Assembly (NCBI GenBank): GCA_026989495.1
Contig: JALSJE010000048.1
Span: forward strand, 1,198 to 65,197
Direction of reading: 5' to 3'
DNA from: Gammaproteobacteria bacterium
Lineage (GTDB): Bacteria; Pseudomonadota; Gammaproteobacteria; S144-34
DNA length: 64,000 nucleotides
Positions 4,029 to 37,456 of the stretch are shown one piece after another. The notes below the pieces were generated by a model that had not been told where the DNA came from, searched no databases, and worked only from the letters and a program-made list of their open reading frames with translations. Numbering within the stretch: the first letter of the stretch is position 1; each line of letters starts with the position of its first letter. The translations under genes were made by a program, and so were the position numbers.

Positions 4029-6785
4029 TCACGGCGCCGCCGACGGGCGGCCGTTCCGGCGGGACGCGCGGTAGCGCAGCCACGCCTTCTCGGCCTCCAC
4101 CGCGAGCAGCAGGAGCGCGGCGGCGAGACCCGCGCGCAGCCAGGCCCCGGGCGCCGGGGCCGCGGTGCCGAAGACGGCCTGCATGGCGGGCAGGTAGGTG
4201 AAGGGAAGCTGCAGGAGCACGACGGTGGCCACGGCCGCAGGCACCCAGGGATTGCGCGCGCGCGCGCGCGCCCAGAGGGCGGTGCGCAGGCGGCGGGCAT
4301 TCAGCAGGTAGGCCGCCTCGAGCAGCACCAGGGCGTTGACTGCGGCGGCGCGTGCGGCCTCCAGGGTGGAGCCGGCAGCGAGCTCCCAGGCGAACAGGCC
4401 GTAGATGGCGGCCACCATCAGCAGCCCCACGAAGGCCGTGCGCCACAGCACGAAGGGCGAGAGCAGGCGCTCGTCACGTGGCCGCGGCGGGCGCCGCATC
4501 ACGTCGGCCTCGGCCGGCTCGACCGCGATGGCGAGCGCGAGCGTCACGGCCGTGACCATGTTGACCCACAGGATCTGCACCGGCGTGATGGGCAGGAGCT
4601 GGCCCGCCGCCACCGCGGCCACGATGACCCCCGCCTCGGCGGCGTTCGTGGGCAGCACGAAGGCGATGGCCTTGCGGATGTTGTCGTAGACGGTGCGGCC
4701 TTCCTCGACCGCGGCGGCGATGGAGGCGAAATTGTCGTCGGCGAGCACCACCTCGGCGGCCTCGCGCGCCGCGGCCGTGCCCTTGCGCCCCATGGCCACG
4801 CCGACGTCCGCCTGGCGCAGGGCCGGGGCGTCGTTGACGCCGTCGCCGGTCATGGCCACCACCTCGCCGTGCCGCTGCAGCGCGCGCACGAGCGCCAGCT
4901 TGTGCTCGGGGGCCGTGCGCGCGAAGACGTCCACGCGCCCGGCCGCGCGCGCCAGCGCCGCCCCGTCCAGGGGGTCGAGCTCGGCCCCCGTCAGGACCGC
5001 CGGCTCGCCCTCCCCGAGCCCCAGGCGCACGGCGATGGCGCGGGCCGTGGCGGCGTGGTCGCCGGTGATCATCTTGACGCGGATGCCGGCCGCGCGGCAG
5101 CGGGCGACGGCCTCGACCGCCTCGGGGCGCGGCGGATCGGCCAGGCCCACCAGCCCCAGGAAGACGAGGTCCGTGCCCAGGTCCTCGTAGCGCAGGTTGC
5201 GCTGCTCGGCGGGGGCCGGGCGCATCGCCACCGCGAGCACGCGCAGCCCGTCGCCCGTGAGCCGCTCCAGCGCCAGGTGCCAGTAGCCGTGATCGATGGG
5301 CCGGTCCCCGCCATGGGCGTGCTCGCTCACGCACAGCTCGAGCAGGCGCTCGGGCGCGCCCTTGACGAATATGCAGCCGTGGCCCGCATGGTCGTGGTGC
5401 AGGCTTGCCATCAGGCGCTGGTTGGGGTCGAACGGGATGAGGTCGGTGCGCGGCCATTCGCCGTGCACGGCGGCGGGATCGAGGCCGGCCTTGCGCGCGA
5501 GCACCACCAGCGCGGCGTCCACCGGGTCGCCGGCGATCCGCGGCTTGCCGTCGGCGTCCAGCGCCACCTCGGCCTCGCTCGCCAGCAGCGCCGCGCGCGC
5601 GAGCGCCATGAGGTCGGGGCGGGCGGTGGGCTCCACGGGCTGCCCGTCCACCCGGAATTCGCCGTGGAAGCCGTAGCCCACGCCCGTGACCGTGTAACGC
5701 GCCTCGGCGGTGACGACGGCCTCCGTGGTGAGCTCGTTGCGGGTGAGCGTGCCGGTCTTGTCCGAGCAGATGACGGTGACCGCGCCCAGGGTGTCCACGG
5801 CCGGCAGGCGGCGGATGATGGCGTGGCGCCGGGCCATGCGCTGCACGCCCACGGCCAGCGCGATGGTGAGGATGGCCGGCAGCCCTTCCGGGATGGCCGC
5901 CACCGCCAGCCCCACCGCCGCCATGAACATGTCCGCTGCGGGCTGCCCGCGCACCGCGACCCCGAAGGCGAAGGTGGCGGCGGCCAGCGCCAGGATGGCG
6001 GCGGTCAGGGTGCGGCCGAAGGCCTTCATCTGGCGCAAAAGGGGTGTCTCCACGCGCTCGGCGGTGGCCACGAGCGCCCCGATGCGCCCGATCTCTGCCG
6101 CCGCGCCCGTGGCGGTGACGACCGCGAGCGCCCGTCCGCGCGTCACCAGCGTGCCGGAGTGGACCATGTCGCGCCGGTCGGCGAGCGGGGTGGCCACGGG
6201 CACCGGCGCCGGATGCTTCTCCGTCGGCATGGATTCGCCCGTGAGCGCCGATTCGTCCACGGCCAGATCGCGGGCCTCGAGCAGGCGCGCGTCCGCCGGC
6301 ACGCGGTCGCCTGCCTGGAGAACGATCACGTCCCCGGGCACCAGGGACTCCGCCGGCACCTCCACCTGGTGCCCCTCGCGCAGCGCCACCGCCTGGGGGG
6401 CGAGCAGGAGGCGGATCGAGTCGAGGGCCCGCTCGGCCCGGCCCTCCTGGACGAAGCCCACGATGGCGTTGATGAGGACCACGCCCAGGATGACACCCGT
6501 GTCCACCCAGTGCTGCAGGAAGGCGGTGACGAGGGCCGAGGCCAGCAGCACGTAGATGAGCACATCGTGGAGATGGCGCAGCAGGCGCCTGAGGGGGCCC
6601 GGACGCGGCGGCTCCGGCAGGCGGTTGGGGCCGAAGCGCGCCAGGCGCGCGGCGGCCTCGGCGGCCGTGAGCCCCGACCGCCGGCTGCCGAGCCGCTCGA
6701 GCGCCTCCTCGGCCTCGAGGGCATGCCAGGCGGGCGCCGGGCCGGGCTCCGGTGTCTCGTGGCTCGCCGCGGGGGTATGGGGCAT
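4029..6785 (-). CDS. cation-transporting P-type ATPase (P2-type, Ca2+/Mg2+-like)
   Basis: DKTGTLT phosphorylation motif, TGDGVNDAPAL hinge motif, N-terminal cation-ATPase-N region. Start chosen at MPHTP Met with GAGGG RBS, 10 nt after the upstream gene stop. The ORF track extends to 6845. Confidence 0.85.
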   Translation of the reverse strand: MPHTPAASHETPEPGPAPAWHALEAEEALERLGSRRSGLTAAEAAARLARFGPNRLPEPPRPGPLRRLLRHLHDVLIYVLLASALVTAFLQHWVDTGVILGVVLINAIVGFVQEGRAERALDSIRLLLAPQAVALREGHQVEVPAESLVPGDVIVLQAGDRVPADARLLEARDLAVDESALTGESMPTEKHPAPVPVATPLADRRDMVHSGTLVTRGRALAVVTATGAAAEIGRIGALVATAERVETPLLRQMKAFGRTLTAAILALAAATFAFGVAVRGQPAADMFMAAVGLAVAAIPEGLPAILTIALAVGVQRMARRHAIIRRLPAVDTLGAVTVICSDKTGTLTRNELTTEAVVTAEARYTVTGVGYGFHGEFRVDGQPVEPTARPDLMALARAALLASEAEVALDADGKPRIAGDPVDAALVVLARKAGLDPAAVHGEWPRTDLIPFDPNQRLMASLHHDHAGHGCIFVKGAPERLLELCVSEHAHGGDRPIDHGYWHLALERLTGDGLRVLAVAMRPAPAEQRNLRYEDLGTDLVFLGLVGLADPPRPEAVEAVARCRAAGIRVKMITGDHAATARAIAVRLGLGEGEPAVLTGAELDPLDGAALARAAGRVDVFARTAPEHKLALVRALQRHGEVVAMTGDGVNDAPALRQADVGVAMGRKGTAAAREAAEVVLADDNFASIAAAVEEGRTVYDNIRKAIAFVLPTNAAEAGVIVAAVAAGQLLPITPVQILWVNMVTAVTLALAIAVEPAEADVMRRPPRPRDERLLSPFVLWRTAFVGLLMVAAIYGLFAWELAAGSTLEAARAAAVNALVLLEAAYLLNARRLRTALWARARARNPWVPAAVATVVLLQLPFTYLPAMQAVFGTAAPAPGAWLRAGLAAALLLLAVEAEKAWLRYRASRRNGRPSAAP

Positions 6786-26802: not shown

Positions 26803-27782
26803 TGGCGGAGATGGCGCTGTGGGAAGCCGTGCGCCGCGCGCACGACGAGGAGCTGGCCAACGACCCCATGGTCATCGTCATGGGCGAGGACGTGGGCCTG
26901 GCCGGCGGCACCTACAAGGCGACCCTGGGCCTGTACGAGAAGTATGGGCCCGAGCGGGTCATCGATACCCCCATCTCCGAGAACAGCTTCACGGGTCTCG
27001 GCATCGGCGCCTCCTTCCTCGGCGTGCGGCCCATCATCGAGATCATGTCGGTGAACTTCGCCTGGCTGGCGCTCGATCAGATCGCCAACACCGCGGCCAA
27101 GGTGCGCTACATGTCGGGCGGCCAGCTTCAGGCGCCGGTGGTGATCCGCTCGCCGGGAGGCGTCGCCCACCAGCTCGGGGCCCAGCACTCGGCGCGCATG
27201 GAGAAGGTCTTCATGGGGATCGCCGGCCTGCGCGTGGTCACCCCCTCGAACCCGCGCCAGGCCTATGGGCTGCTCAAGTCGGCCGTGCGCTGCGACGATC
27301 CCGTGTTCATCAACGAGCACGAGTACATGTACAACCTGCGCGGCGAGGTGCCGGACGAGGAGTACTTCCATCCGCTGGAGGGCTCGGAGGTGGCCCGCCC
27401 CGGCCGCGACGTCACCCTCTTCGGCTACAACATCTCGGTGCACTGGTGCCTCCAGGCCGCCGAGCGGCTCGCGGCCGAGCACGGCATCGACTGCGAGGTG
27501 GTGGACCTCTACGCGCTCAGCCCCCTCGACCGTGAGGGCATCGCGCGCTCGGTGACCAGGACGCACCGTGCCGTGATCGTGGAGGAGGCCGAGGCCCCGT
27601 GCGGGGTGGGTGCGGAGGTCATGGCCATCATCGACGAGGAGTGCTTCTACGAGCTGGACGCCCCGCCGCTGCGGGTCTCGGCGCGCAACGTGCCCATCCC
27701 GTACAACCGCACCCTGGAGAGGGCCGCCATCCCGAACGCGGACGAGGTGGTGGCGGCGGTGCTGCACCTGCTCGGCAAGTGA
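26802..27782 (+). CDS. 2-oxoacid (pyruvate/acetoin) dehydrogenase E1 component beta subunit
   Basis: 326 aa transketolase-like beta subunit. ATG overlaps the E1alpha stop (ATGA). Confidence 0.9.
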   Translation: MAEMALWEAVRRAHDEELANDPMVIVMGEDVGLAGGTYKATLGLYEKYGPERVIDTPISENSFTGLGIGASFLGVRPIIEIMSVNFAWLALDQIANTAAKVRYMSGGQLQAPVVIRSPGGVAHQLGAQHSARMEKVFMGIAGLRVVTPSNPRQAYGLLKSAVRCDDPVFINEHEYMYNLRGEVPDEEYFHPLEGSEVARPGRDVTLFGYNISVHWCLQAAERLAAEHGIDCEVVDLYALSPLDREGIARSVTRTHRAVIVEEAEAPCGVGAEVMAIIDEECFYELDAPPLRVSARNVPIPYNRTLERAAIPNADEVVAAVLHLLGK

Positions 27783-27838
27783 GGCCCGCGCCGCGGCGCC
27801 CGCGCGGCGCCGCGGCGCGCATCTTCCGGTACCCGGAC

Positions 27839-30800
27839 ATGGCAGAGCGCTACGTCATCAGGATGCCCCAGCTCTCGGACACCATGACCGAGGGCGTGGT
27901 GGTGGGCTGGCAGAAGGCCATCGGCGAGAAGGTCTCGCGCGGCGACGTGGTCGCCCAGGTCGAGACCGACAAGGCCATCATGGACGTGGAGGTCTTCCGC
28001 GAGGGGTATCTCTCGGGGCCGCGCGCGCCGGAGGGCGCCACCGTGCCGGTGGGCGAGCCCATCGCCTATCTGGTGCCGACGCCGGAGGAGGTGGTGGGCG
28101 AGGAGGGGACGGCACCGCCGTCGCCGGAGGCGCCCGCGCCCGCCCCCGAAGCCACCCCGGCGGCCGAGCCTCCCGCGCCGCCGCAGTCCGCCGCGGGAGA
28201 GGGTGCGAGGGGTGATGGCGCGGTCCGGCCGCCCGAGGGGGTGGTGCACGTCATCAGGATGCCCCAGCTCTCGGACACCATGACCGAGGGCGTCGTCGTG
28301 GCCTGGGTCAAGCAGCCCGGCGACAAGGTCGCACGCGGCGACGTGGTCGCCCAGGTGGAGACCGACAAGGCCGTCATGGACGTGGAGGTCTTCCGCGAGG
28401 GCTACCTTTCGGGACCGCTCGCGCCCGTGGACGGCACCGTGCCGGTGGGCGAGCCCATCGGCTACCTGGTCGAGCGCCCCGAGCAGGTGGTGCAGGGTGA
28501 GGCCGCCCCTGCGGCCGCGCCCGCGCCGGCCGCCGCCCCGGCGGCGCCTCCGGCGCCCGCGCGGCCGGAGACCCCGGTGCCTGCGGCGCCGGCCCCGCCC
28601 GCTGCGCGCCGCCCCGGCGCGCCGCCCGCGCCACGGCCCACCAACCGCTACGCCACCCCCTACGCGCGCAAGCTCGCCGGCGAGCTGCAGGTGAACCTGG
28701 AGCACGTGCAGGGGACGGGCCCAGGCGGCGTGATCACCGGCGATGACGTGCTGCGCGCCCAGCCTGTGGCGCGCCCGCGTGAGGCGGCCCCGCTCCCCGC
28801 CCCCGAGCTCATGCCGGAGGCGCAGGTGCCGGGCGAGGGCCGGCCCATGACGGCGATGGAACGCGCGGTGGCGCGCTCCATGACGGCCGCGCTCACCATG
28901 CCCACCTTCCACGCCACCGTGCACGCGCGCCCCGACGCCCTCGTGCGCGGCGCCAAGCGGCGCGGTGTCTCGGTGACGGTGGCGCTCGCCAAGGCCTGCG
29001 CCGAGGCGCTGCGGCGCCACCCGCGCATGAACTGGGCCTACCAGCCGGTGGACCGCATCGTCGAGCGCGCGCAGGTGGACATCGGCATGGCGGTGGCGGC
29101 CGAGGACGGCGGGCTCGTGGTGCCGGTGCTGCGCCGCTGCGAGGCGCGCCCCCTGGAGGAGCTGCACGCCGAGTGGAAGGGGCTGGTCGAGCGCGCGCGC
29201 AAGCGCCGCCTCAAGCCCCAGGAGTACGCCAACCCCACGTTCATGATCTCCAACATGGGGATGCTGAACGTGGACTGGTTCGACGCCATCCCCACGCCGG
29301 GCACGGCGGCCATCCTCGCCGTGGCCACCGCGGGCGAGCGGGGCATGCCCCTCACCATCACCGCCGATCACCGGGTGGTGAACGGCGCCGAGGTCGCGGC
29401 CTTCCTCAACACCCTGCGCGAGCTGGTGGAGCGGCCCGACGACTGGCTCGCCCCCCCCGGGCCACGCATCCCCGAGGGCGAGTGGGACTGGCCGGTGGTG
29501 GTCATCGGTGGCGGGCCCGGCGGCGAGGACTGTGCGCGCGAGCTCGCCGAGCACGGCATCAAGGTGGCGCTGGTCAACGACGCCCCGCTCCCCGGTGGCG
29601 AGTGCCTGTGGCGCGGCTGCATCCCGTCCAAGACCTGGCGCGCCGCCGCCGACCGCATCCGCGACCGCGCCCACGACGCCCGCCTCGGGGTGCTGGGCAC
29701 CGCCAGGCCGCGTCTCGACTGGAAGCGCCTCGAGGCCACCCGCCGGGAGGTGCTCGAGACCCGCGGCGCGATGGCCCTCAAGACCGACAAGGGCATGAAG
29801 GTGGAGGTGATCCAGGGGCGCGCGCGCTTCGAGGACGCCCACACCCTGTTCATCGACACCTCCCACCTGCCGGAGGACCCCCACGCCCGCCCCGGCCCCG
29901 GCGACGGCAGCGAGGGCTACCGCATCACCTTCGGCTGCGCCGTGATCGCCACCGGCGCGCCGCCCTTCGTGCCGCCCATCCCCGGCGCCCGCGAGGGCCT
30001 GGAGACCGGCGGCGTCCTCACCTCCGACACCGTGTGGTCCCTCGAGGGCCCGCCGAAGCGCATGGTGGTGGTGGGCGGCGGGGCCATCGGCGCCGAGATG
30101 GCGCAGATGTTCCAGGACTTCGGCACGCGCGTGCTGCTGCTCGAGGCGCGCAGCCGCATCCTGGCCGAGGTCGAGCCCGAGATCGCCGAGCGGCTCGGGG
30201 CCGTGCTCGCCGCCGATCCGCGCCTGGAGGTCCATGTCTCGGTGCGCATCGAGAGCCTCTCGGGCGAGCCCGGCGCCATGAAGGTGCGCTGGCGCGACGC
30301 CGAAGGGAAGCGGCGCACGACGACCTGCGATCGCGTGCTCATGGCCACGGGCAAGCGCCCCGTGCTCGAGCCCCTGCAGCTCGACCGGGCGGGCGTGGCG
30401 GTGCGCGACGGCGTCATCGCCGTGGACGACGGCTGCCGCACCTCGGTCCCGCACATCTATGCCGTCGGGGATGCGAACGGCGGCTACATGCTCGCCCACA
30501 CGGCGGCGACCCAGGGGCGCGTGGCCGCGGCCCGGATCCTGGGCGAGCCGCGCCGCTACGATCCGGACCTCGACTGCGGCGTCATCTTCACCCGCCCCCA
30601 GGCCGCCTTCGTGGGCCTCGACGTCGAGCGGGCCAGGGCCAAGGGGCTCGACCCGGCCGAGGTCAAGGTGCCGCTCGGCATCGACGCCAAGGCCATGATC
30701 ACGGGCGAGACCGAGGGCCTCATCAAGCTCGTGGCCGACAAGGCGAGCCACCGCATCGTGGGGGTGCACCTGCTCGCCGACCACGCCGACACCCTGATCG

Positions 30801-30955
30801 GCGAGGCCGTGATGATGGTCGCCGGGCGCATGACGCTGGAGCAGGTTGCCGAGGCCATCCACCCGCACCCCACCCAGACCGAGCTCTTCGGCGACCTCGC
30901 CCGGCGGCTGCTCTCGCGCCTGCGCCGCACCGCCCGCGCCCGCGCGCGGAGCTAG
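27839..30955 (+). CDS. fused dihydrolipoamide acyltransferase (E2: two lipoyl domains + catalytic domain) and dihydrolipoyl dehydrogenase (E3)
   Basis: Two lipoyl-lysine sites (ETDKAIMDV, ETDKAVMDV), Ala/Pro linkers, E2 catalytic DHRVVNGAEVAAFL. Continues in frame (no stop, no Met) into E3: VVVIGGGPGG, redox disulfide GGECLWRGCIPSK, C-terminal HPHPTQTE. 1038 aa. Confidence 0.8.
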   Translation: MAERYVIRMPQLSDTMTEGVVVGWQKAIGEKVSRGDVVAQVETDKAIMDVEVFREGYLSGPRAPEGATVPVGEPIAYLVPTPEEVVGEEGTAPPSPEAPAPAPEATPAAEPPAPPQSAAGEGARGDGAVRPPEGVVHVIRMPQLSDTMTEGVVVAWVKQPGDKVARGDVVAQVETDKAVMDVEVFREGYLSGPLAPVDGTVPVGEPIGYLVERPEQVVQGEAAPAAAPAPAAAPAAPPAPARPETPVPAAPAPPAARRPGAPPAPRPTNRYATPYARKLAGELQVNLEHVQGTGPGGVITGDDVLRAQPVARPREAAPLPAPELMPEAQVPGEGRPMTAMERAVARSMTAALTMPTFHATVHARPDALVRGAKRRGVSVTVALAKACAEALRRHPRMNWAYQPVDRIVERAQVDIGMAVAAEDGGLVVPVLRRCEARPLEELHAEWKGLVERARKRRLKPQEYANPTFMISNMGMLNVDWFDAIPTPGTAAILAVATAGERGMPLTITADHRVVNGAEVAAFLNTLRELVERPDDWLAPPGPRIPEGEWDWPVVVIGGGPGGEDCARELAEHGIKVALVNDAPLPGGECLWRGCIPSKTWRAAADRIRDRAHDARLGVLGTARPRLDWKRLEATRREVLETRGAMALKTDKGMKVEVIQGRARFEDAHTLFIDTSHLPEDPHARPGPGDGSEGYRITFGCAVIATGAPPFVPPIPGAREGLETGGVLTSDTVWSLEGPPKRMVVVGGGAIGAEMAQMFQDFGTRVLLLEARSRILAEVEPEIAERLGAVLAADPRLEVHVSVRIESLSGEPGAMKVRWRDAEGKRRTTTCDRVLMATGKRPVLEPLQLDRAGVAVRDGVIAVDDGCRTSVPHIYAVGDANGGYMLAHTAATQGRVAAARILGEPRRYDPDLDCGVIFTRPQAAFVGLDVERARAKGLDPAEVKVPLGIDAKAMITGETEGLIKLVADKASHRIVGVHLLADHADTLIGEAVMMVAGRMTLEQVAEAIHPHPTQTELFGDLARRLLSRLRRTARARARS

Positions 30956-31043: not shown

Positions 31044-31316
31044 ATGGCGTCGAATACAAGGATGTCTTACAATTTCGGTGGTGACGATACCGTGACGCGC
31101 GTGATGGAAGCCATACTGTCCAGCAAGTTCCAGCTCGTGATCCCCAAGGCCGTCCGGGATCGATTGGGGCTGAAGCCCGGGCAGCGCATCATCGTCCTCG
31201 AGAAGGGCGGCGTGATCCATCTGGTCCCCGAGCGCTCGCTCGCGGCGCTGCGCGGGATGGCTCGGGGAACGGTGGCGGCGGATGGCGAGCTGCGCGAGAA
31301 GAGGGACCGCTATTGA
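31044..31316 (+). CDS. vapB: type II antitoxin, AbrB/SpoVT (MazE/VapB-like) family
   Basis: C-terminal 70 aa MEAILSSKFQLVIPKAVRDRLGLKPGQRIIV... is a swapped-hairpin AbrB-type domain. Start uncertain (several in-frame ATGs, weak RBS). Stop overlaps the vapC TTG start. Confidence 0.55.
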   Translation: MASNTRMSYNFGGDDTVTRVMEAILSSKFQLVIPKAVRDRLGLKPGQRIIVLEKGGVIHLVPERSLAALRGMARGTVAADGELREKRDRY

Positions 31317-31702
31317 CCGTCGTGGTGGACTCGTGCGGATGGATCGAGTATCTCACGGACGGCCCTCTGGCCCAGTACTATGCCGGGGTGCTGGAGGGCG
31401 ACGAGCCGGTGGCCGTGCCGACGCTCGTCCTCTATGAGGTGTACAAGTTCGTCAAGCGGGTCTCGGGAGAGGAGCGTGCAATGGTAGCCGCCGCCCATCT
31501 GTGCACGTGCACGCTGGTCCCGCTGGACGAGGCGCTGGCGCTGGAGGCGGCCGACGCGGCGCTCGCGCACGGGCTGGCCATGGCGGACGCCACCGTCTAC
31601 GCGACGGCGTGCCGTCTCGGGGCCGAGCTGATCACCTCGGACAAGGACCTGAAGGGGCTGCCGGGCGTGCGTTTCATCGAGGCCGCCCGGAACCCGGGTT
31701 GA
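31313..31702 (+). CDS. vapC: PIN-domain ribonuclease toxin VapC
   Basis: 129 aa. Conserved acidic residues D6 (VVVDS), E40 (LYEVYK), D (TSDKD). TTG start in a TTGA overlap with the antitoxin stop. Local GC is below background. Confidence 0.8.
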
Positions 31703-31869: not shown

Positions 31870-33081
<1,212 letters not shown>

Positions 33082-33169
33082 GCCCGCTCCTCCCGGCCGC
33101 GCGCGGCGCGTCCGGGGCCTCCCATGGGCATGCCGCGACGCTGAGCGCCGCGGGATGGCCGGGCCGTCC

Positions 33170-33631
33170 TCAGCGCGCCCACAGGCGCGAGACGAGATGG
33201 TCCAGGCTCGCGCGGCCCGCGCCCTGGAACAGGAGGGGCAGCAGCATCACGAGGTAGATGAGCGGCAGCTTCCAGCCGTTGCTGCACACGTTGTAGCCGT
33301 TGTCCGCGTGCACGCTCGTCCACGCCACCACGTCCAGCACGATCAGGGCGAGCGCCCAGAAGCGCGTGCCGAGCCCGAGCACGAGCCCCACCGCGCCGAG
33401 CAGCTCGGTCCACAGGGCGAGCTGCCAGCTCAGCTCCACCGGGACCAGGTTGAAGGGGAAGGGGAAGCTCGCGCGGATCTCCCCGAACCAGTTCTGGCCG
33501 TAGAACTTCTCGACGCCCGACTCCCAGAACTCGTAGGCGAGCAGGAGCCGCAGCCCGAGCTGGGGCAGGAAGGTGCCGATGCGGTCGAGCCAGCCGACCA
33601 CGGTGCAGCCCAGTGAGACGATTCCGCTCAT
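33170..33631 (-). CDS. DoxX family membrane protein (BufD/HvfD-like)
   Basis: 153 aa, 4 TM. DoxX-type LRLLLAYEFWESGVEKF. Start overlaps the DUF2063 stop (ATGA). Confidence 0.8.
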   Translation of the reverse strand: MSGIVSLGCTVVGWLDRIGTFLPQLGLRLLLAYEFWESGVEKFYGQNWFGEIRASFPFPFNLVPVELSWQLALWTELLGAVGLVLGLGTRFWALALIVLDVVAWTSVHADNGYNVCSNGWKLPLIYLVMLLPLLFQGAGRASLDHLVSRLWAR

Positions 33632-34428
33632 CGGTCCTCATCCTCCCGCGACCTCGCCGGTCCTGTGCCGTTCGCGGCGGTGCCGAGCAGCACCTCGGCG
33701 CGGCGCAGCGCCGCCAGCGTGGCGGCCCCTGCCGCCACCGCCCCTTCCGGGTCGGGCAGCCCGAGCGCCTCGGCGGCGCGCCACAGGGCCTCGGCCCCGG
33801 TCAGCCCGGGCTCCGCCTCCAGCAGGGCCAGCAGGCGCTCGGCGGCGGGCGCGGCCTCCATGAAGCGTACCGCCTCCGCGCTGTCGCGCCACACGAGCAG
33901 GTGCACGGGCTGTGGCGCCGGTGCCTCCGGCACCACGTCCGGCCCGATGCGGTGCACGGGCCAGCGGTAGCGCAGGCGCCGCAGCAGCGGGTTGGGCACG
34001 GGGTGGCCGGCGAGCAGGTCGCCCGTCGGATCGAGCCCAGCCGCCGGGAGCTCGCGGGGGTCGTAGGCGACCTCGAGCTCGACCCATTCATAGTGCAGGA
34101 GCTCGCCGAGCCACGGCGGCACCGGCGCGCCGCCTGCGCCCGCGGCCACGAAGCCCACCAGCTCGCGCGGCAGCTTCGGGAAGAGGGGGGTGCGGGCGCG
34201 GTGGCGGGCGAGGAAGGCGCGCACGAGGGCATGCCAGGCCGCATCCCCCAGCGTGGCGCGCGCCACGGGGAAGGCGCCCGCGAGCTGGTCCTCGACGTTG
34301 TTGTAGACCAGCTCGCGGTAGACGGCGATGCGGTCGGCCGGCACTTCCGCGGGCGGGGGGACCCGCTCCGGGTCGCGCAGATGCGCGGCGAAGCGCCGCT
34401 GCAGCTCGGCCAGCCGCCTTTCAGCCAT
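33628..34428 (-). CDS. DUF2063 domain protein (putative DNA-binding-domain fold; MNIO partner BufC/HvfC/TglI-like)
   Basis: N-terminal RRLAELQRRFAAHLRDP...VYRELVYNN is typical of DUF2063. GGGAGG RBS. Starts 2 nt after the DUF692 stop. Confidence 0.8.
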   Translation of the reverse strand: MAERRLAELQRRFAAHLRDPERVPPPAEVPADRIAVYRELVYNNVEDQLAGAFPVARATLGDAAWHALVRAFLARHRARTPLFPKLPRELVGFVAAGAGGAPVPPWLGELLHYEWVELEVAYDPRELPAAGLDPTGDLLAGHPVPNPLLRRLRYRWPVHRIGPDVVPEAPAPQPVHLLVWRDSAEAVRFMEAAPAAERLLALLEAEPGLTGAEALWRAAEALGLPDPEGAVAAGAATLAALRRAEVLLGTAANGTGPARSREDEDR

Positions 34429-35305
34429 GGACGGCCTCCCGGGCGCGGCCACGCTGGCAGGCGCGCACGCGGGCGAGCTCCGCGAGCAGCGTCTCCAGGG
34501 GCGGAATGTCGAAGTCGCGCTCGAGCAGGGTCGGCATCGGGCCGAGGCGCCGGTAGGCGTGCTCGAGCAGGCGCCAGACCGGATCGGGCACCGCCGTGCC
34601 GTGGGTGTCGATGAGGAGATCCGGGCGTTCCACGTAATGGCCGGCCACGTGCAGGTAGGCCACGCGCGCCGGCGGGATGCGGTCGATGTAGGCGTAGGGG
34701 TCGAAGCCGAAGTTGACGCTGTTGACGTGGACGTTGTTCACGTCCAGCAGCAGGTCGCAGTCCGCCTCTTCGAGCACCGCGCAGACGAAATCGACCTCGT
34801 CCATCTCCTGCGCCGGCACGGCGTAGCAGGAGACGTTCTCCACCGCGATGCGCCGGTCCAGGAGGTCCTGCACCCGGCGGATGCGCGCAGCCACGTGATG
34901 CACGGCCTCAGCGGTCCAGGGCAGCGGCAGGAGGTCGTAGAGCTGGCCGCCGTCGGCGCACCAGGCGAGGTGCTCGCTGTAGATCAGGGCCCCGTGGGTG
35001 TCCATGAAGCGGCCCACGGCGCGCACGAAATCCTCCTCCAGCGGGGCGGTGCCCCCCAGGTTGAGGGAGAGCCCATGACAGACGAGGGGCAGGCGCTCGG
35101 TCAGGCTGCGCAGCAGGCGTCCCTGCCTGCCGCCCACGCCGATCCAGTTGTCGGGCGCGAGCTCGAGGAAGTCCGCCTCCAGCCCCGGCCCACGTGCGCG
35201 TTCAGCCGCCTCCTCCAGGAAGGCGCGGCGCAGGCCGAGCCCCGCCCCGCGCAGCCCGGGCGGGACGGCGCTCACATCCCGCCGCCGCACTTGCCTTCGC
35301 CGCAT
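34421..35305 (-). CDS. DUF692 / MNIO family (multinuclear non-heme iron oxidative enzyme; MbnB/TglH/BufB-like), TIM-barrel
   Basis: GLGLRRAFLEE...LELAPDNWIG...VCHGLSLNLGG...IYSEHLAWC...IAVENVSCY...AYLHVAGHY are the conserved DUF692 blocks. Start is either ATG 35305 (AGGAAGG RBS, 33-nt overlap with precursor) or GTG in an ATGTGA overlap with the precursor stop. Confidence 0.85.
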   Translation of the reverse strand: MRRRQVRRRDVSAVPPGLRGAGLGLRRAFLEEAAERARGPGLEADFLELAPDNWIGVGGRQGRLLRSLTERLPLVCHGLSLNLGGTAPLEEDFVRAVGRFMDTHGALIYSEHLAWCADGGQLYDLLPLPWTAEAVHHVAARIRRVQDLLDRRIAVENVSCYAVPAQEMDEVDFVCAVLEEADCDLLLDVNNVHVNSVNFGFDPYAYIDRIPPARVAYLHVAGHYVERPDLLIDTHGTAVPDPVWRLLEHAYRRLGPMPTLLERDFDIPPLETLLAELARVRACQRGRAREAVHG

Positions 35306-35640
35306 CGGCCTTCCTTCTTGGCCTTCTGCGGCGCGGCGCCGCCCTTCATGCCGGCGCAGGTGCCTTCCTTGCCGCCCTTGGACGTGCCGTCATTGCCCTT
35401 CATGCCGGCGCAGGTGCCTTCCTTGCCGCCCTTGGCCGAGTCGTCCTTGCTCTTCATGCCGGCGCACTGCCCCTCCTTGGCGCCCTTCCGCATGCCGGCG
35501 CAGCTACCTTCGGATCCCTTGCCGGCCACCATGTAGCCGCCTGGCAGCTCCTGGACCGCGAAGGGGTTGCCGGCCGCCTGGGCCCCGGTGCCCGCCGCCA
35601 GCGCCGCGCCCACGGCTGCCGCCAGCGCCCCCCGGCGCAT
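35272..35640 (-). CDS. secreted Cys-repeat RiPP precursor peptide (EGxCAGMK x4 + EGRCGEGKCGGGM); bufferin/HvfA-like
   Basis: 122 aa. Sec signal MRRGALAAAVGAALAAGTGAQAAG. Core has four EG(S/Q/T)CAGM(K/R) repeats and a terminal EGRCGEGKCG (6 Cys). 54-nt DNA tandem repeats. GGAGG RBS 6 nt before ATG. Sits directly upstream of MNIO/DUF2063/DoxX. Confidence 0.75.
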   Translation of the reverse strand: MRRGALAAAVGAALAAGTGAQAAGNPFAVQELPGGYMVAGKGSEGSCAGMRKGAKEGQCAGMKSKDDSAKGGKEGTCAGMKGNDGTSKGGKEGTCAGMKGGAAPQKAKKEGRCGEGKCGGGM

Positions 35641-35780
35641 CGTCGCCTCCACCCGGCCGTTCCTGCTCGTGTGGGTCTTCTCTCTGGCCATGCGTGCCAC
35701 TCCTTCTTTGCCTCGCCGCCTTGTCTTCGTTTGCGCAGGGCCGGAAGGGACGGCGGCTTCAGCCCCGCTCCGGCTCTTGC

Positions 35781-36251
35781 TCAGACATCGCTCGCCCGGG
35801 ATGGTTCGTCCGCCGCCCGTCCGCGCGCGAGCGCCTGCACGCAGCGCAGGTAGGCGGTCTCGTCGGGCGCGCGTCCCGCGCGCTGGGCGCGCCACAGGGC
35901 CTCGACCAGGCAGTCCATGATGCGGTGCTCGGCCTCGTGCGCGCTGCCGGCCCGCCGCACCAGGGCGGCGTAGGCGGCACGGAAGCCCCCCGGGCGGTCG
36001 GTTGCGGCCTGCTCGCGAATGGCGAGGTGCAGGCCCATGTGCAGGAAGGGGTTGGTCTCGCCGAGCTCCGGGAGGTACTCGCGCCCGAGGGCCGCCTCCT
36101 CCTGCTCGAGCAGGGCGTGGTACTCCGGATGCTCGGCGATCACGGCCGCCACCTCGCGCGCCAGGGGCTCGAGCGGCTCGCCCGCGCGGTGGCGGCGCCA
36201 GGCCTCGCAGTAGTAGCGTCGCAGGGCGTCGCGGTCCCGGGTGAAGAGCAT
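35781..36251 (-). CDS. DUF1841 family protein
   Basis: MLFTRDRDALRRYYCEAWRRHRAGEPLEPLE... matches the DUF1841 N-terminus. Internal Met start chosen. Confidence 0.6.
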   Translation of the reverse strand: MLFTRDRDALRRYYCEAWRRHRAGEPLEPLAREVAAVIAEHPEYHALLEQEEAALGREYLPELGETNPFLHMGLHLAIREQAATDRPGGFRAAYAALVRRAGSAHEAEHRIMDCLVEALWRAQRAGRAPDETAYLRCVQALARGRAADEPSRASDV

Positions 36252-36326
36252 GGGCGACCCTCGACCTTGCGCCGTGCCCAGTGTAGCGTGGCCGGGCGCC
36301 GGATGGACCCCCTTCACCCTGCGGGT

Positions 36327-37022
36327 TCAGCCCCCGGCGGCCCGGCGCCGGGCCGTAGGCTTGCCGGCCTGCGCGCCTTCCTTGCCTTCCCACTCGCACA
36401 GCTCCCGGATCACGCAGGCCTGGCAGCGGGGCTTGCGTGCCGTGCACACGTAGCGCCCGTGCAGGATGAGCCAGTGATGGGCGTTGCGGCGGAAGGCCTC
36501 GGGCACGATGCGCTCGAGGCCCTTCTCGACCTCCAGCGGCGTGCGCCCGGGTGCGAGCCCGGTGCGGTTGGCGACGCGGAAGATGTGGGTGTCCACGGCG
36601 ATGGTGGGCTCGCCGAAGGCGGTGTTGAGGACCACGTTGGCGGTCTTGCGGCCCACGCCCGGCAGGGCCTCGAGGGCGGCGCGGTCGCGCGGGACGCGCC
36701 CGCCGTGGCGCTCGACCAGGATGCGTGAGGCCGCGACGATGTTGCGCGCCTTGGTGTTGTAGAGGCCGATCGAGCGGATGTGGCGCCTTAGCCCCGCCTC
36801 GCCCAGGCGCAGCATGTCCTGCGGTTTGCGCACCTTGCGGAACAGGGCGCGGGTAGCCTCGTTCACGGCCCGGTCGGTGGACTGGGCCGAGAGGATCACG
36901 GCCACCAGGAGCTGGTAGGCGTTGCCGTAGCTGAGCTCCGTGCGCGGCTCCGGATTGGCCGCGCGCAGCCGCTCGAAGATGCGCCGCGCCTTCCTGCGGT
37001 CCACCGGCGCGGCCCGCCTCAC
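36327..37022 (-). CDS. nth: endonuclease III (DNA glycosylase/AP lyase)
   Basis: HhH-GPD (LPGVGRKTANVVL), catalytic K/D, [4Fe-4S] C-x6-C-x2-C-x5-C (CTARKPRCQACVIRELC). GTG start in a GTGA overlap with the upstream ORF stop. Downstream of the rnf operon as in E. coli. Confidence 0.9.
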   Translation of the reverse strand: MRRAAPVDRRKARRIFERLRAANPEPRTELSYGNAYQLLVAVILSAQSTDRAVNEATRALFRKVRKPQDMLRLGEAGLRRHIRSIGLYNTKARNIVAASRILVERHGGRVPRDRAALEALPGVGRKTANVVLNTAFGEPTIAVDTHIFRVANRTGLAPGRTPLEVEKGLERIVPEAFRRNAHHWLILHGRYVCTARKPRCQACVIRELCEWEGKEGAQAGKPTARRRAAGG

Positions 37023-37456
37023 ATGTGGCGGAAGCGACCCACCTCCGGCGCCGGCGGGGGAGGGTTCGACCGCGCCTCCTCGTCGAGCTCGCGCACCAGC
37101 CGCTCGTGCGCCTCCTCCAGGGCCTTGCGCTGTGCCTCGTCGAGCCTGGGCAGGATGAGGTCGCGGATGAGGTCGCCGAGGTCGGCCATGGCCTCGGCCC
37201 AGTGCTTGCCCTGCAGGTGGAAGCTGTGGCGGGCATGCTGGCCGTAGGGATAGGACGCGAAATCGACGCCCTTGGCCGCACGCAGGTCGGGATCTTCCAT
37301 GACCCGCTCCTTTGCCCAGTCGTACCACCACCGGTAGTAGCGCTCCTGGAGCGCCTCGCTCCAGCGGTGGCGCTCGAAGAAGGCGCCGATGGTCATGCGC
37401 GGCGCGAGACCGTAGCGCACGCCGCGCCGGGCCACGAAGGGTAGGTGTCCAGCCAT
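37019..37456 (-). CDS. hypothetical protein
   Basis: 145-aa ORF with strong GGAGGA RBS. Stop overlaps the nth start. No family recognised. Confidence 0.45.
   Translation of the reverse strand: MAGHLPFVARRGVRYGLAPRMTIGAFFERHRWSEALQERYYRWWYDWAKERVMEDPDLRAAKGVDFASYPYGQHARHSFHLQGKHWAEAMADLGDLIRDLILPRLDEAQRKALEEAHERLVRELDEEARSNPPPPAPEVGRFRHM

Follow-up and report, generated by a model that had tools for sequence, protein, structure and literature searches.

A probable captophorin biosynthetic operon with a minority Cys-Ala core variant on a gammaproteobacterial contig

Fontiphorin (FonABC, from Fontimonas thermophila), oxazolin (Hvf) and gonophorin (Ngo) all carry 5-thiooxazoles, and the Mitchell group has proposed the class name captophorins for them (PMC13097082). 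The fontiphorin product was assigned by alkylation-assisted heteronuclear multiple bond correlation (HMBC), FonBC reactions remove 8 Da for two Cys, the 5-thiooxazole products absorb near 305 nm, and Cu binding has been demonstrated for fontiphorin and gonophorin (PMC13097082). A heterodimer of the MNIO enzyme with its partner protein has been demonstrated for FonBC and HvfBC. About half of the reference genomes of Pseudomonadota have clusters with an MNIO and a partner, the products of which presumably buffer copper in the periplasm (PMC13097082). Moreover, the Lille group has described approximately 2,000 'Buf_EGKCG/oxazolin' precursors, whose clusters combine precursor, MNIO, DUF2063 and DoxX variously (PMC12452194). 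Here, we describe a locus of this kind in a 64,000-nucleotide stretch of DNA from a Gammaproteobacteria bacterium (contig JALSJE010000048.1 of assembly GCA_026989495.1, forward-strand positions 1,198 to 65,197; the whole stretch is called the window below), where positions 33170 to 35691 contain four consecutive, translationally coupled open reading frames (ORFs), all of the minus strand, for a secreted precursor with Cys repeats, an MNIO, a partner of the DUF2063 family and a DoxX protein.

This locus probably encodes the biosynthesis of a captophorin of the oxazolin/fontiphorin type, with a minority Cys-Ala variant of the core, because its proteins pass the cut-offs of the HvfB, HvfC and HvfX models, its enzyme and partner are 58% and 49% identical to FonB and FonC, respectively, the specificity and catalytic residues are kept, and the leader of the precursor is homologous to that of FonA. 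A sequence-only reading of the window had already placed four coupled minus-strand genes here and named MNIO, DUF2063 and DoxX as the families of three of them; both the ORFs and the families were verified, the latter by profile hidden Markov model (HMM) searches in which Pfam families and NCBIfam equivalogs were matched above cut-off. [quoted passage not shown]

The MNIO enzyme, of the HvfB/FonB type (34421 to 35275, minus strand), matches PF05114 (MbnB_TglH_ChrH, MNIO/DUF692) with an E value of 7e-101 and scores 393.5 bits on the HvfB equivalog NF003818 (cut-off 360), 270.6 bits on the BufB equivalog NF050167, under the cut-off of 310, and 43.8 bits on the MbnB model TIGR04159, which has a cut-off of 325. 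Direct comparison with the Fon, Hvf and Ngo reference sequences, taken from Table S6 of PMC13097082, gives an identity of 58% to FonB, 49% to NgoB and 42% to HvfB, and the structure 3BWW is matched with an E value of 2e-69. The motifs HGLSL, SEHL, VEN, LDVNN, HVAGH and IDTHG, with the iron ligands, are all intact, and the motifs of the HvfB site-3 residues N175, D242 and H244 are retained as LDVNN and IDTHG. In addition, R16/R17, D254 and F255 are the equivalents of FonB Arg15/Arg16, Asp249 and Phe250, which gate the substrate register, act as the catalytic base and contact the residues flanking the Cys, respectively (PMC13097082). As judged from the sequence, translation may begin either at GTG 35275 (284 aa), which shares a GTGA with the precursor stop and makes the N-terminus as long as that of FonB, or at ATG 35305 (294 aa), with 10 more residues and with AAGGAAGG ahead of it.

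The partner protein (HvfC/FonC, PME1; 33628 to 34428, minus strand, 266 aa) combines an N-terminal DUF2063 domain (PF09836) with an NGO1945-type C-terminal domain (PF22106), scores 259.6 bits on the HvfC equivalog NF050145 (cut-off 142), is 49% identical to FonC and matches the structure 3DEE with an E value of 1.5e-6. The DoxX-family membrane protein (33170 to 33631, minus strand, 153 aa) matches PF07681 and belongs to the HvfX family, with 143.6 bits on NF050144 (cut-off 80). Its gene is missing after the partner gene in two related loci (L005 and L007) and DoxX is, by this comparison of sequences, dispensable on the time-scale of these relatives.

All four genes overlap at their junctions, from which a single transcription unit is deduced. 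The partner and DoxX genes share an ATGA, as the sequence-only reading had it, whereas the 2-nt gap that it placed between the MNIO and partner genes is in fact an 8-nt overlap (ATGGCTGA), with the partner ATG at 34428, and the ATG within the ATGTGA that it gave as another junction is the last (Met) codon of the precursor and out of frame for the MNIO. A consensus scan for sigma-70 promoters and intrinsic terminators from 32900 to 36500 turned up nothing promoter-like and a single terminator-like site, which is on the wrong strand and no more than chance would give, the scan being uninformative at 74% G+C, and an Rfam scan of the whole window gave no family match and, thus, no riboswitch or small RNA at the operon.

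The precursor (FonA/HvfA-like; 35272 to 35691, minus strand) is read as 139 aa from ATG 35691 to the TGA stop at 35274-35272, and consists of a predicted signal peptide (residues 1-39, 35575 to 35691; assigned by the AxA rule and the alignment of relatives), a putative leader or recognition segment AGNPFAVQELPGGYMVAG (residues 40-57, 35521 to 35574; assigned by the same alignment and by likeness to FonA) and a core region with six Cys, the predicted 5-thiooxazole sites (residues 58-139, 35275 to 35520). Within the leader, NPFAVQELPGGYMVAG aligns with FonA SVFQASDLGAGYMVAS, a segment that is part of the minimal peptide modified by FonBC in vitro (PMC13097082), and the precursor matches FonA in BLASTP with an E value of 2e-19 and 42% identity over 120 residues. 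P43, F44, L49, G52, Y53, M54, V55 and A56 are invariant in the alignment of relatives, and the leader motif was found in 107 of the top 150 representatives of the family. By analogy with the characterized systems, the HvfC-type partner probably docks on this segment through its RRE domain.

The operon would then function as follows. The 139-aa precursor would be made in the cytoplasm, where its NPFAVQELPGGYMVAG segment would dock on the RRE-containing DUF2063 partner, and the partner would form a heterodimer with the multi-iron MNIO, as FonBC and HvfBC do. For HvfB, the Rosenzweig group found that the active species is a mixed-valent diiron cofactor formed only when HvfC is present (bioRxiv 10.64898/2026.06.05.730506, 10.64898/2026.07.17.739211). 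The MNIO would use O2 in a four-electron oxidation to convert each core Cys, up to six here, into a 5-thiooxazole, a reaction shown for FonA, HvfA and NgoA, in which the preceding residue contributes its carbonyl to the ring and the Cys its N, C-alpha and C-beta, the sulfur being left as an exocyclic thiol(ate). The signal peptide would carry the modified peptide to the periplasm, where the thiooxazole thiolates would bind Cu(I) and buffer excess copper, possibly helped by the Met that follows each CAG. The EGxCAGMK units would represent a natural Cys-Ala variant of the usual EGKCGGxK/EGKCGEGKCG, arisen in place at a conserved chromosomal site.

The core reads, in order, EGSCAGMR, EGQCAGMK, EGTCAGMK, EGTCAGMK and a terminal EGRCGEGKCG, exactly the repeat content reported by the sequence-only reading. 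The EGxCAGMK units are encoded in a tandem array (35308 to 35499, minus strand) with a 54-bp period, 3.6 copies and a 78% match in Tandem Repeats Finder. The 875 Cys sites in the top 150 representatives of the family give the consensus E(-3) G(-2) K(-1) C G(+1) x x K(+4), and the residue after the Cys is Gly at 785 sites, Ala at 54 and Ser at 19; the units of the window keep E, G and K(+4), but have Ser, Gln or Thr in place of K(-1), Ala in place of G(+1) and a Met at +3. The strings CAGM, TCAGM and related ones were not found in two published landscapes of the class, the motif tables of which give categories only, and one landscape counts 508 'other repeat' biosynthetic gene clusters among the repeat-containing ORFs (PMC13097082). 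A word-indexed search gave only 18 close relatives of the precursor, six of them (P0001-P0006) with CAG units. Cys-Ala-rich cores are present in several separate lineages, in the forms DGKCAANK, EGECAGEDK, EGNCAADK, GKCAGYK and, the closest of these, EGKCAGMKD in P0051. Among the substitutions tested in vitro, Ala is the only one that FonBC accepts after Cys, with EAKCAEGKCA being processed, and the same enzyme tolerates Thr, Ala or Arg before Cys, while NgoA naturally has EGSCG units (PMC13097082 and its Table S6). As far as sequences tell, the EGxCAGMK core is an uncommon but recurrent natural variant, within the known tolerance of an enzyme 58% identical to that of the window. Thus, the earlier statement that this core is not a described variant holds for the string itself and for the failure of the HvfA models described below, but not for Cys-Ala cores in general, which recur and which FonBC can process.

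Two further features of the repeats are worth recording. The precursor gene of the metagenome contig ERZ27262642 k141_170035 (L001; positions 5972-6380) is 100% identical to that of the window save for a 54-bp in-frame indel, by which one EGTCAGMK unit and its spacer (18 codons; 35382 to 35435 in the window, minus strand, the placement within the repeat being ambiguous) are absent from L001, leaving three CAG units instead of four. Either the number of repeats is polymorphic among near-identical strains or the assembly has collapsed here. Moreover, three Methylomonas loci (L014, L016 and L019) have the same NPF...GYMVA leader and strongly Met-rich cores (EGSCGDMMKGGMGGMGGMKHGD...), which resemble methionine-rich Cu(I) motifs. 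A Met lies within four residues of at least half of the Cys in 19 of the top 150 representatives, which suggests that Met enrichment near modified Cys recurs in the family.

Several observations weigh against the assignment to the captophorins, or at least against modification of the whole core. Curated HvfA models do not recognize the precursor, which scores 14.5 bits as a whole and 15.8 bits as core alone on NF050137 (cut-off 19.5), with only the C-terminal pair matched, and 7-8 bits on NF050188 (cut-off 95); in addition, no Pfam family is matched, hence the precursor is not a DUF2282 protein. NF050137 is also missed by the related locus L006 (7.8 bits) and by P0005 (15.0 bits), whereas relatives that share the leader and have Cys-Gly cores reach 34-77 bits, and the precursor is, by its leader and C-terminus, a divergent homologue of the family members. 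FonBC generally shows a strong preference for Cys-Gly and leaves a one-repeat substrate unprocessed (PMC13097082), so that modification of all six Cys cannot be taken for granted. In the Cys-Ala clade (window, L006 and L007), the MNIOs carry S104A, Y105W, H111Q, Y183H and H189F beside the iron-ligand motifs. Furthermore, within approximately 15 kb on each side of the operon there are no genes for copper efflux, sensors, regulators or sigma/anti-sigma factors, in agreement with what had been noted from the sequence, and the link to copper is thus drawn wholly from homology. We infer the modification of six Cys and the processing of a natural Cys-Ala core at this locus by analogy with the Fon, Hvf and Ngo relatives.

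These points bear most directly on the extent of modification. Only the Cys of the C-terminal EGRCGEGKCG might become thiooxazoles, the four CAG Cys remaining as free thiols and acting, with the adjacent Met, as ordinary Cys/Met ligands of Cu(I). The CAG units vary in sequence and number, whereas the C-terminal pair is the same throughout the clade; this pair is the only part of the core that the curated HvfA models recognize, and most substitutions of the Gly after Cys other than Ala block processing by FonBC. However, Ala is precisely the one substitution accepted at this position, each CAG Cys is framed by E(-3), G(-2) and K(+4) as in the consensus, so the units still appear to be shaped for the enzyme, and Cys-Ala cores recur in independent lineages, always within the EG-x-C frame. 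We therefore regard such partial modification as unlikely, and by analogy with FonBC full modification of the six Cys seems more likely than modification of the C-terminal pair alone, because Ala is a tolerated substitution and the E-G-x-C...K frame has been maintained.

The substitutions in the clade enzymes also invite a more far-reaching proposal. The changes shared by the clade (SEHLSY to SEHLAW, GHLYDL to GQLYDL, NNIYVN to NNVHVN and NH to NF) are found in no relative paired with a Cys-Gly core nor in FonB, and 34 MNIO positions are specific to the Cys-Ala clade; this co-variation of enzyme and core is confounded by phylogeny because the three Cys-Ala loci all come from a single close lineage. 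The CAGM clade could represent a functionally distinct captophorin sub-type, in which the MNIO pocket would have co-evolved with the core through S104A, Y105W, H111Q, Y183H and H189F, the thiooxazoles would bear C2 substituents derived from Ser, Gln or Thr and be followed by Ala, the thioether of the invariant Met(+3) would give each unit a mixed thiolate/thioether Cu(I) site, and the repeat number would be tuned by 54-bp slippage. We consider this sub-type a speculative idea of low probability.

As regards the chemistry of the product, the sequence-only reading had proposed oxazolone/thioamide pairs, as in methanobactin, in place of the 5-thiooxazoles of the captophorins. This was the original 2024 assignment for HvfA (PMC11252979), and the names of the NCBIfam models still carry it, but in 2026 two laboratories independently revised it to 5-thiooxazole, namely the Mitchell group (PMC13097082) and the original authors, the Rosenzweig group (bioRxiv 10.64898/2026.06.05.730506, 10.64898/2026.07.17.739211). 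The read-outs named in the sequence-only reading, -4 Da per Cys and a feature at about 305 nm, apply to 5-thiooxazoles too. Moreover, the MNIO of the window falls far below the cut-off of the MbnB model and is most similar among the three references to FonB, the product of which was assigned by HMBC, so that oxazolone/thioamide pairs are very improbable here.

The captophorin assignment also presupposes that the precursor ORF is a gene, in a window where a G+C content of 73.6% makes chance ORFs abundant. Its G+C content at third codon positions (GC3) is 0.91, next to 0.92-0.97 for the three enzyme genes, and a Shine-Dalgarno-like AAGGAG (35700 to 35705, minus strand; read from the sequence) lies 8 nt upstream of ATG 35691. 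An exhaustive search with a profile of its closest relatives retrieved, at E<=0.001, 865 cluster representatives, and an ORF of the same build, with signal peptide, leader and core, is located directly upstream of the MNIO-partner pair in 17 of 19 related genome loci, which sustains the earlier expectation that the small ORF would be conserved. Against the nearest loci from metagenome-assembled genomes (MAGs), L006 and L007, approximately 18 codons of the signal and leader differ only synonymously, and RRGA...NPFAVQELPGGYMVA is retained. Thus, on the grounds of GC3, the Shine-Dalgarno sequence, synteny and these synonymous-only changes, the precursor ORF is a real gene that is selected as a protein. 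The exact 139-aa and 122-aa precursors are absent from a collection of 15 billion proteins in which the MNIO, partner and DoxX proteins of the contig are all present, and in the source record the precursor probably went uncalled or was given other boundaries. That the small ORF is no substrate or no gene, with the precursor encoded elsewhere or the operon a decaying remnant, could draw on this absence and on orphan precursors in relatives (P0005), but is scarcely credible in view of the evidence above, the overlap with the MNIO start, the call on L001, the FonA-homologous leader and the intact active-site residues of the enzyme. The start is most likely ATG 35691, which the gene caller also chose on L001, rather than ATG 35640, so that the 122-aa product of the earlier reading gives way to one of 139 aa.

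The predicted signal peptide combines a long basic n-region, which contains a twin arginine (TMRRGALAAAVGAALAAGTGAQA), with an h-region rich in Ala and Gly, and AQA (residues 37-39) precedes the predicted cleavage site, which is followed by the conserved NPF; the relatives all show a signal-like N-terminus that ends just before this NPF. The RR n-region, which is also present in L006, L007, P0002 and P0003, resembles a signal for twin-arginine translocation (Tat). Tat export was considered as a candidate and set aside, as no Tat-signal model is among the NCBIfam matches at E<=10 and more distant relatives carry Lys-rich n-regions of the Sec type; as a possibility read from the sequence, such a signal peptide could take the peptide, once modified, out by Tat instead of Sec.

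The order rnfE-nth-DUF1841-precursor-MNIO-partner is common to the window, L006, L007, L012, L013 and L024, a Thiohalobacter MAG, and argG lies downstream in L010 and L023, as in the window. At this same chromosomal site the cores are of the Cys-Gly type in L012 and L013 and of the Cys-Ala type in L006, L007 and the window, from which it follows that the core changed in place and not by transfer. Scanning genome contigs with the precursor retrieved uncultured gammaproteobacterial MAGs, with up to 69% precursor identity, together with one Thiohalobacter MAG. CAG-type precursors are also found without an adjacent MNIO (P0005, P0006 and L009). In MAGs of Chromatiales/Gammaproteobacteria from hydrothermal vents (L002, L003, L004 and L009, with P0005 and its relatives), a lone CAGM-type precursor is located between hemB and a DUF523/2-thiouracil-desulfurase gene; the P0005-type precursor has three EGTCAGMKK units and EGKCGEGKCG, with no MNIO or partner within 6 kb.

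The neighbours of the operon, within approximately 15 kb on each side, are only of the housekeeping type, such as a dehydrogenase cluster (E1-alpha/E1-beta/E2-E3), VapBC, argG, DUF1841, nth, rnf, metG, apbC/mrp, dcd and purM. In the dehydrogenase cluster, one stop-free frame of 1139 codons (27536-30955, plus strand), downstream of the E1-alpha and E1-beta genes, encodes an apparent E2-E3 fusion with two lipoyl domains, an E3-binding domain, a 2-oxoacid dehydrogenase acyltransferase (aa 436-638) and a complete dihydrolipoamide dehydrogenase (Pyr_redox_2 and dimerisation domain, aa 654-1119). Between this cluster and argG, a VapB-like (MazE/AbrB-type) antitoxin gene and a PIN-domain VapC toxin gene overlap at stop and start (about 31070-31702, plus strand). 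On the other side, a 145-aa ORF (37019-37456, minus strand) between rnfE and nth overlaps the nth start, matches no Pfam family and is called on L001; it was not detected in the other syntenic loci by tblastn at E<=1e-3.

The locus adds nothing new in kind, as its operon type has already been characterized. Nevertheless, curated precursor models miss natural Cys-Ala cores, and precursors with such cores are left as 'hypothetical' or uncalled, so that HMM-based mining of genomes counts too few of them. At a chromosomal site that is fixed and vertically inherited, the core can drift from Cys-Gly to Cys-Ala, which offers a natural test of the substrate tolerance mapped in vitro with FonBC, and the repeat number varies between otherwise identical strains, unless the assembly of L001 has collapsed. 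Should the Met-containing units prove to bind copper in a site of another kind, the range of coordination chemistry known for the class would widen.

Among the known systems, methanobactin (MbnABC) shares with the window an enzyme of the MNIO superfamily that oxidizes Cys of a ribosomal peptide to give a copper ligand. However, its partner MbnC is not a DUF2063 protein, its product is of the oxazolone/thioamide type, its precursor has a leader peptide instead of a signal peptide, and its role is the acquisition of copper rather than its sequestration. The bufferins of Caulobacter vibrioides (BufABCD, with DUF2282/Buf1 and Buf2 precursors; PMC11626156) share with the window the families of precursor, MNIO, DUF2063 and DoxX, a signal peptide on the precursor and a role in thiooxazole-based copper buffering, which is predicted for the window, whereas the precursor of the window lacks DUF2282 and a core of the Cys-Lys type, its MNIO stays under the BufB cut-off, and no sigma/anti-sigma genes are adjacent.

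Oxazolin (HvfXABC of nontypeable Haemophilus influenzae) has the four protein families and a secreted Cys-repeat precursor in common with the window, and the HvfA product is a 5-thiooxazole that binds Cu(I). The differences lie in the low identity to HvfB (only 42%) and the weak similarity to HvfC, in HvfA, which is devoid of the GYMVA leader and has three AEGKCGEGKCG motifs, in the position of HvfX, listed first among the hvf proteins while DoxX is the last gene of the window operon, and in an insertion after the HIAGH motif of HvfB that the MNIO of the window does not have. Fontiphorin is the closest characterized relative. The cluster listed for fon has no DoxX protein, whereas the window operon has a DoxX gene, as do the hvf and ngo clusters; the seven Cys of FonA are all in [E][G/A]KCG units, whereas four of the six Cys of the window are in EG[S/Q/T]CAGM[K/R]; and the signal peptide of the window has a long n-region containing RR. 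Both systems share the R-R and D-F specificity and catalytic residues of the MNIO and the layout of the precursor, in which a signal peptide is followed by an FxxxxLxxGYMVA leader, Cys repeats and an end of the EGKCGEGKCG type.

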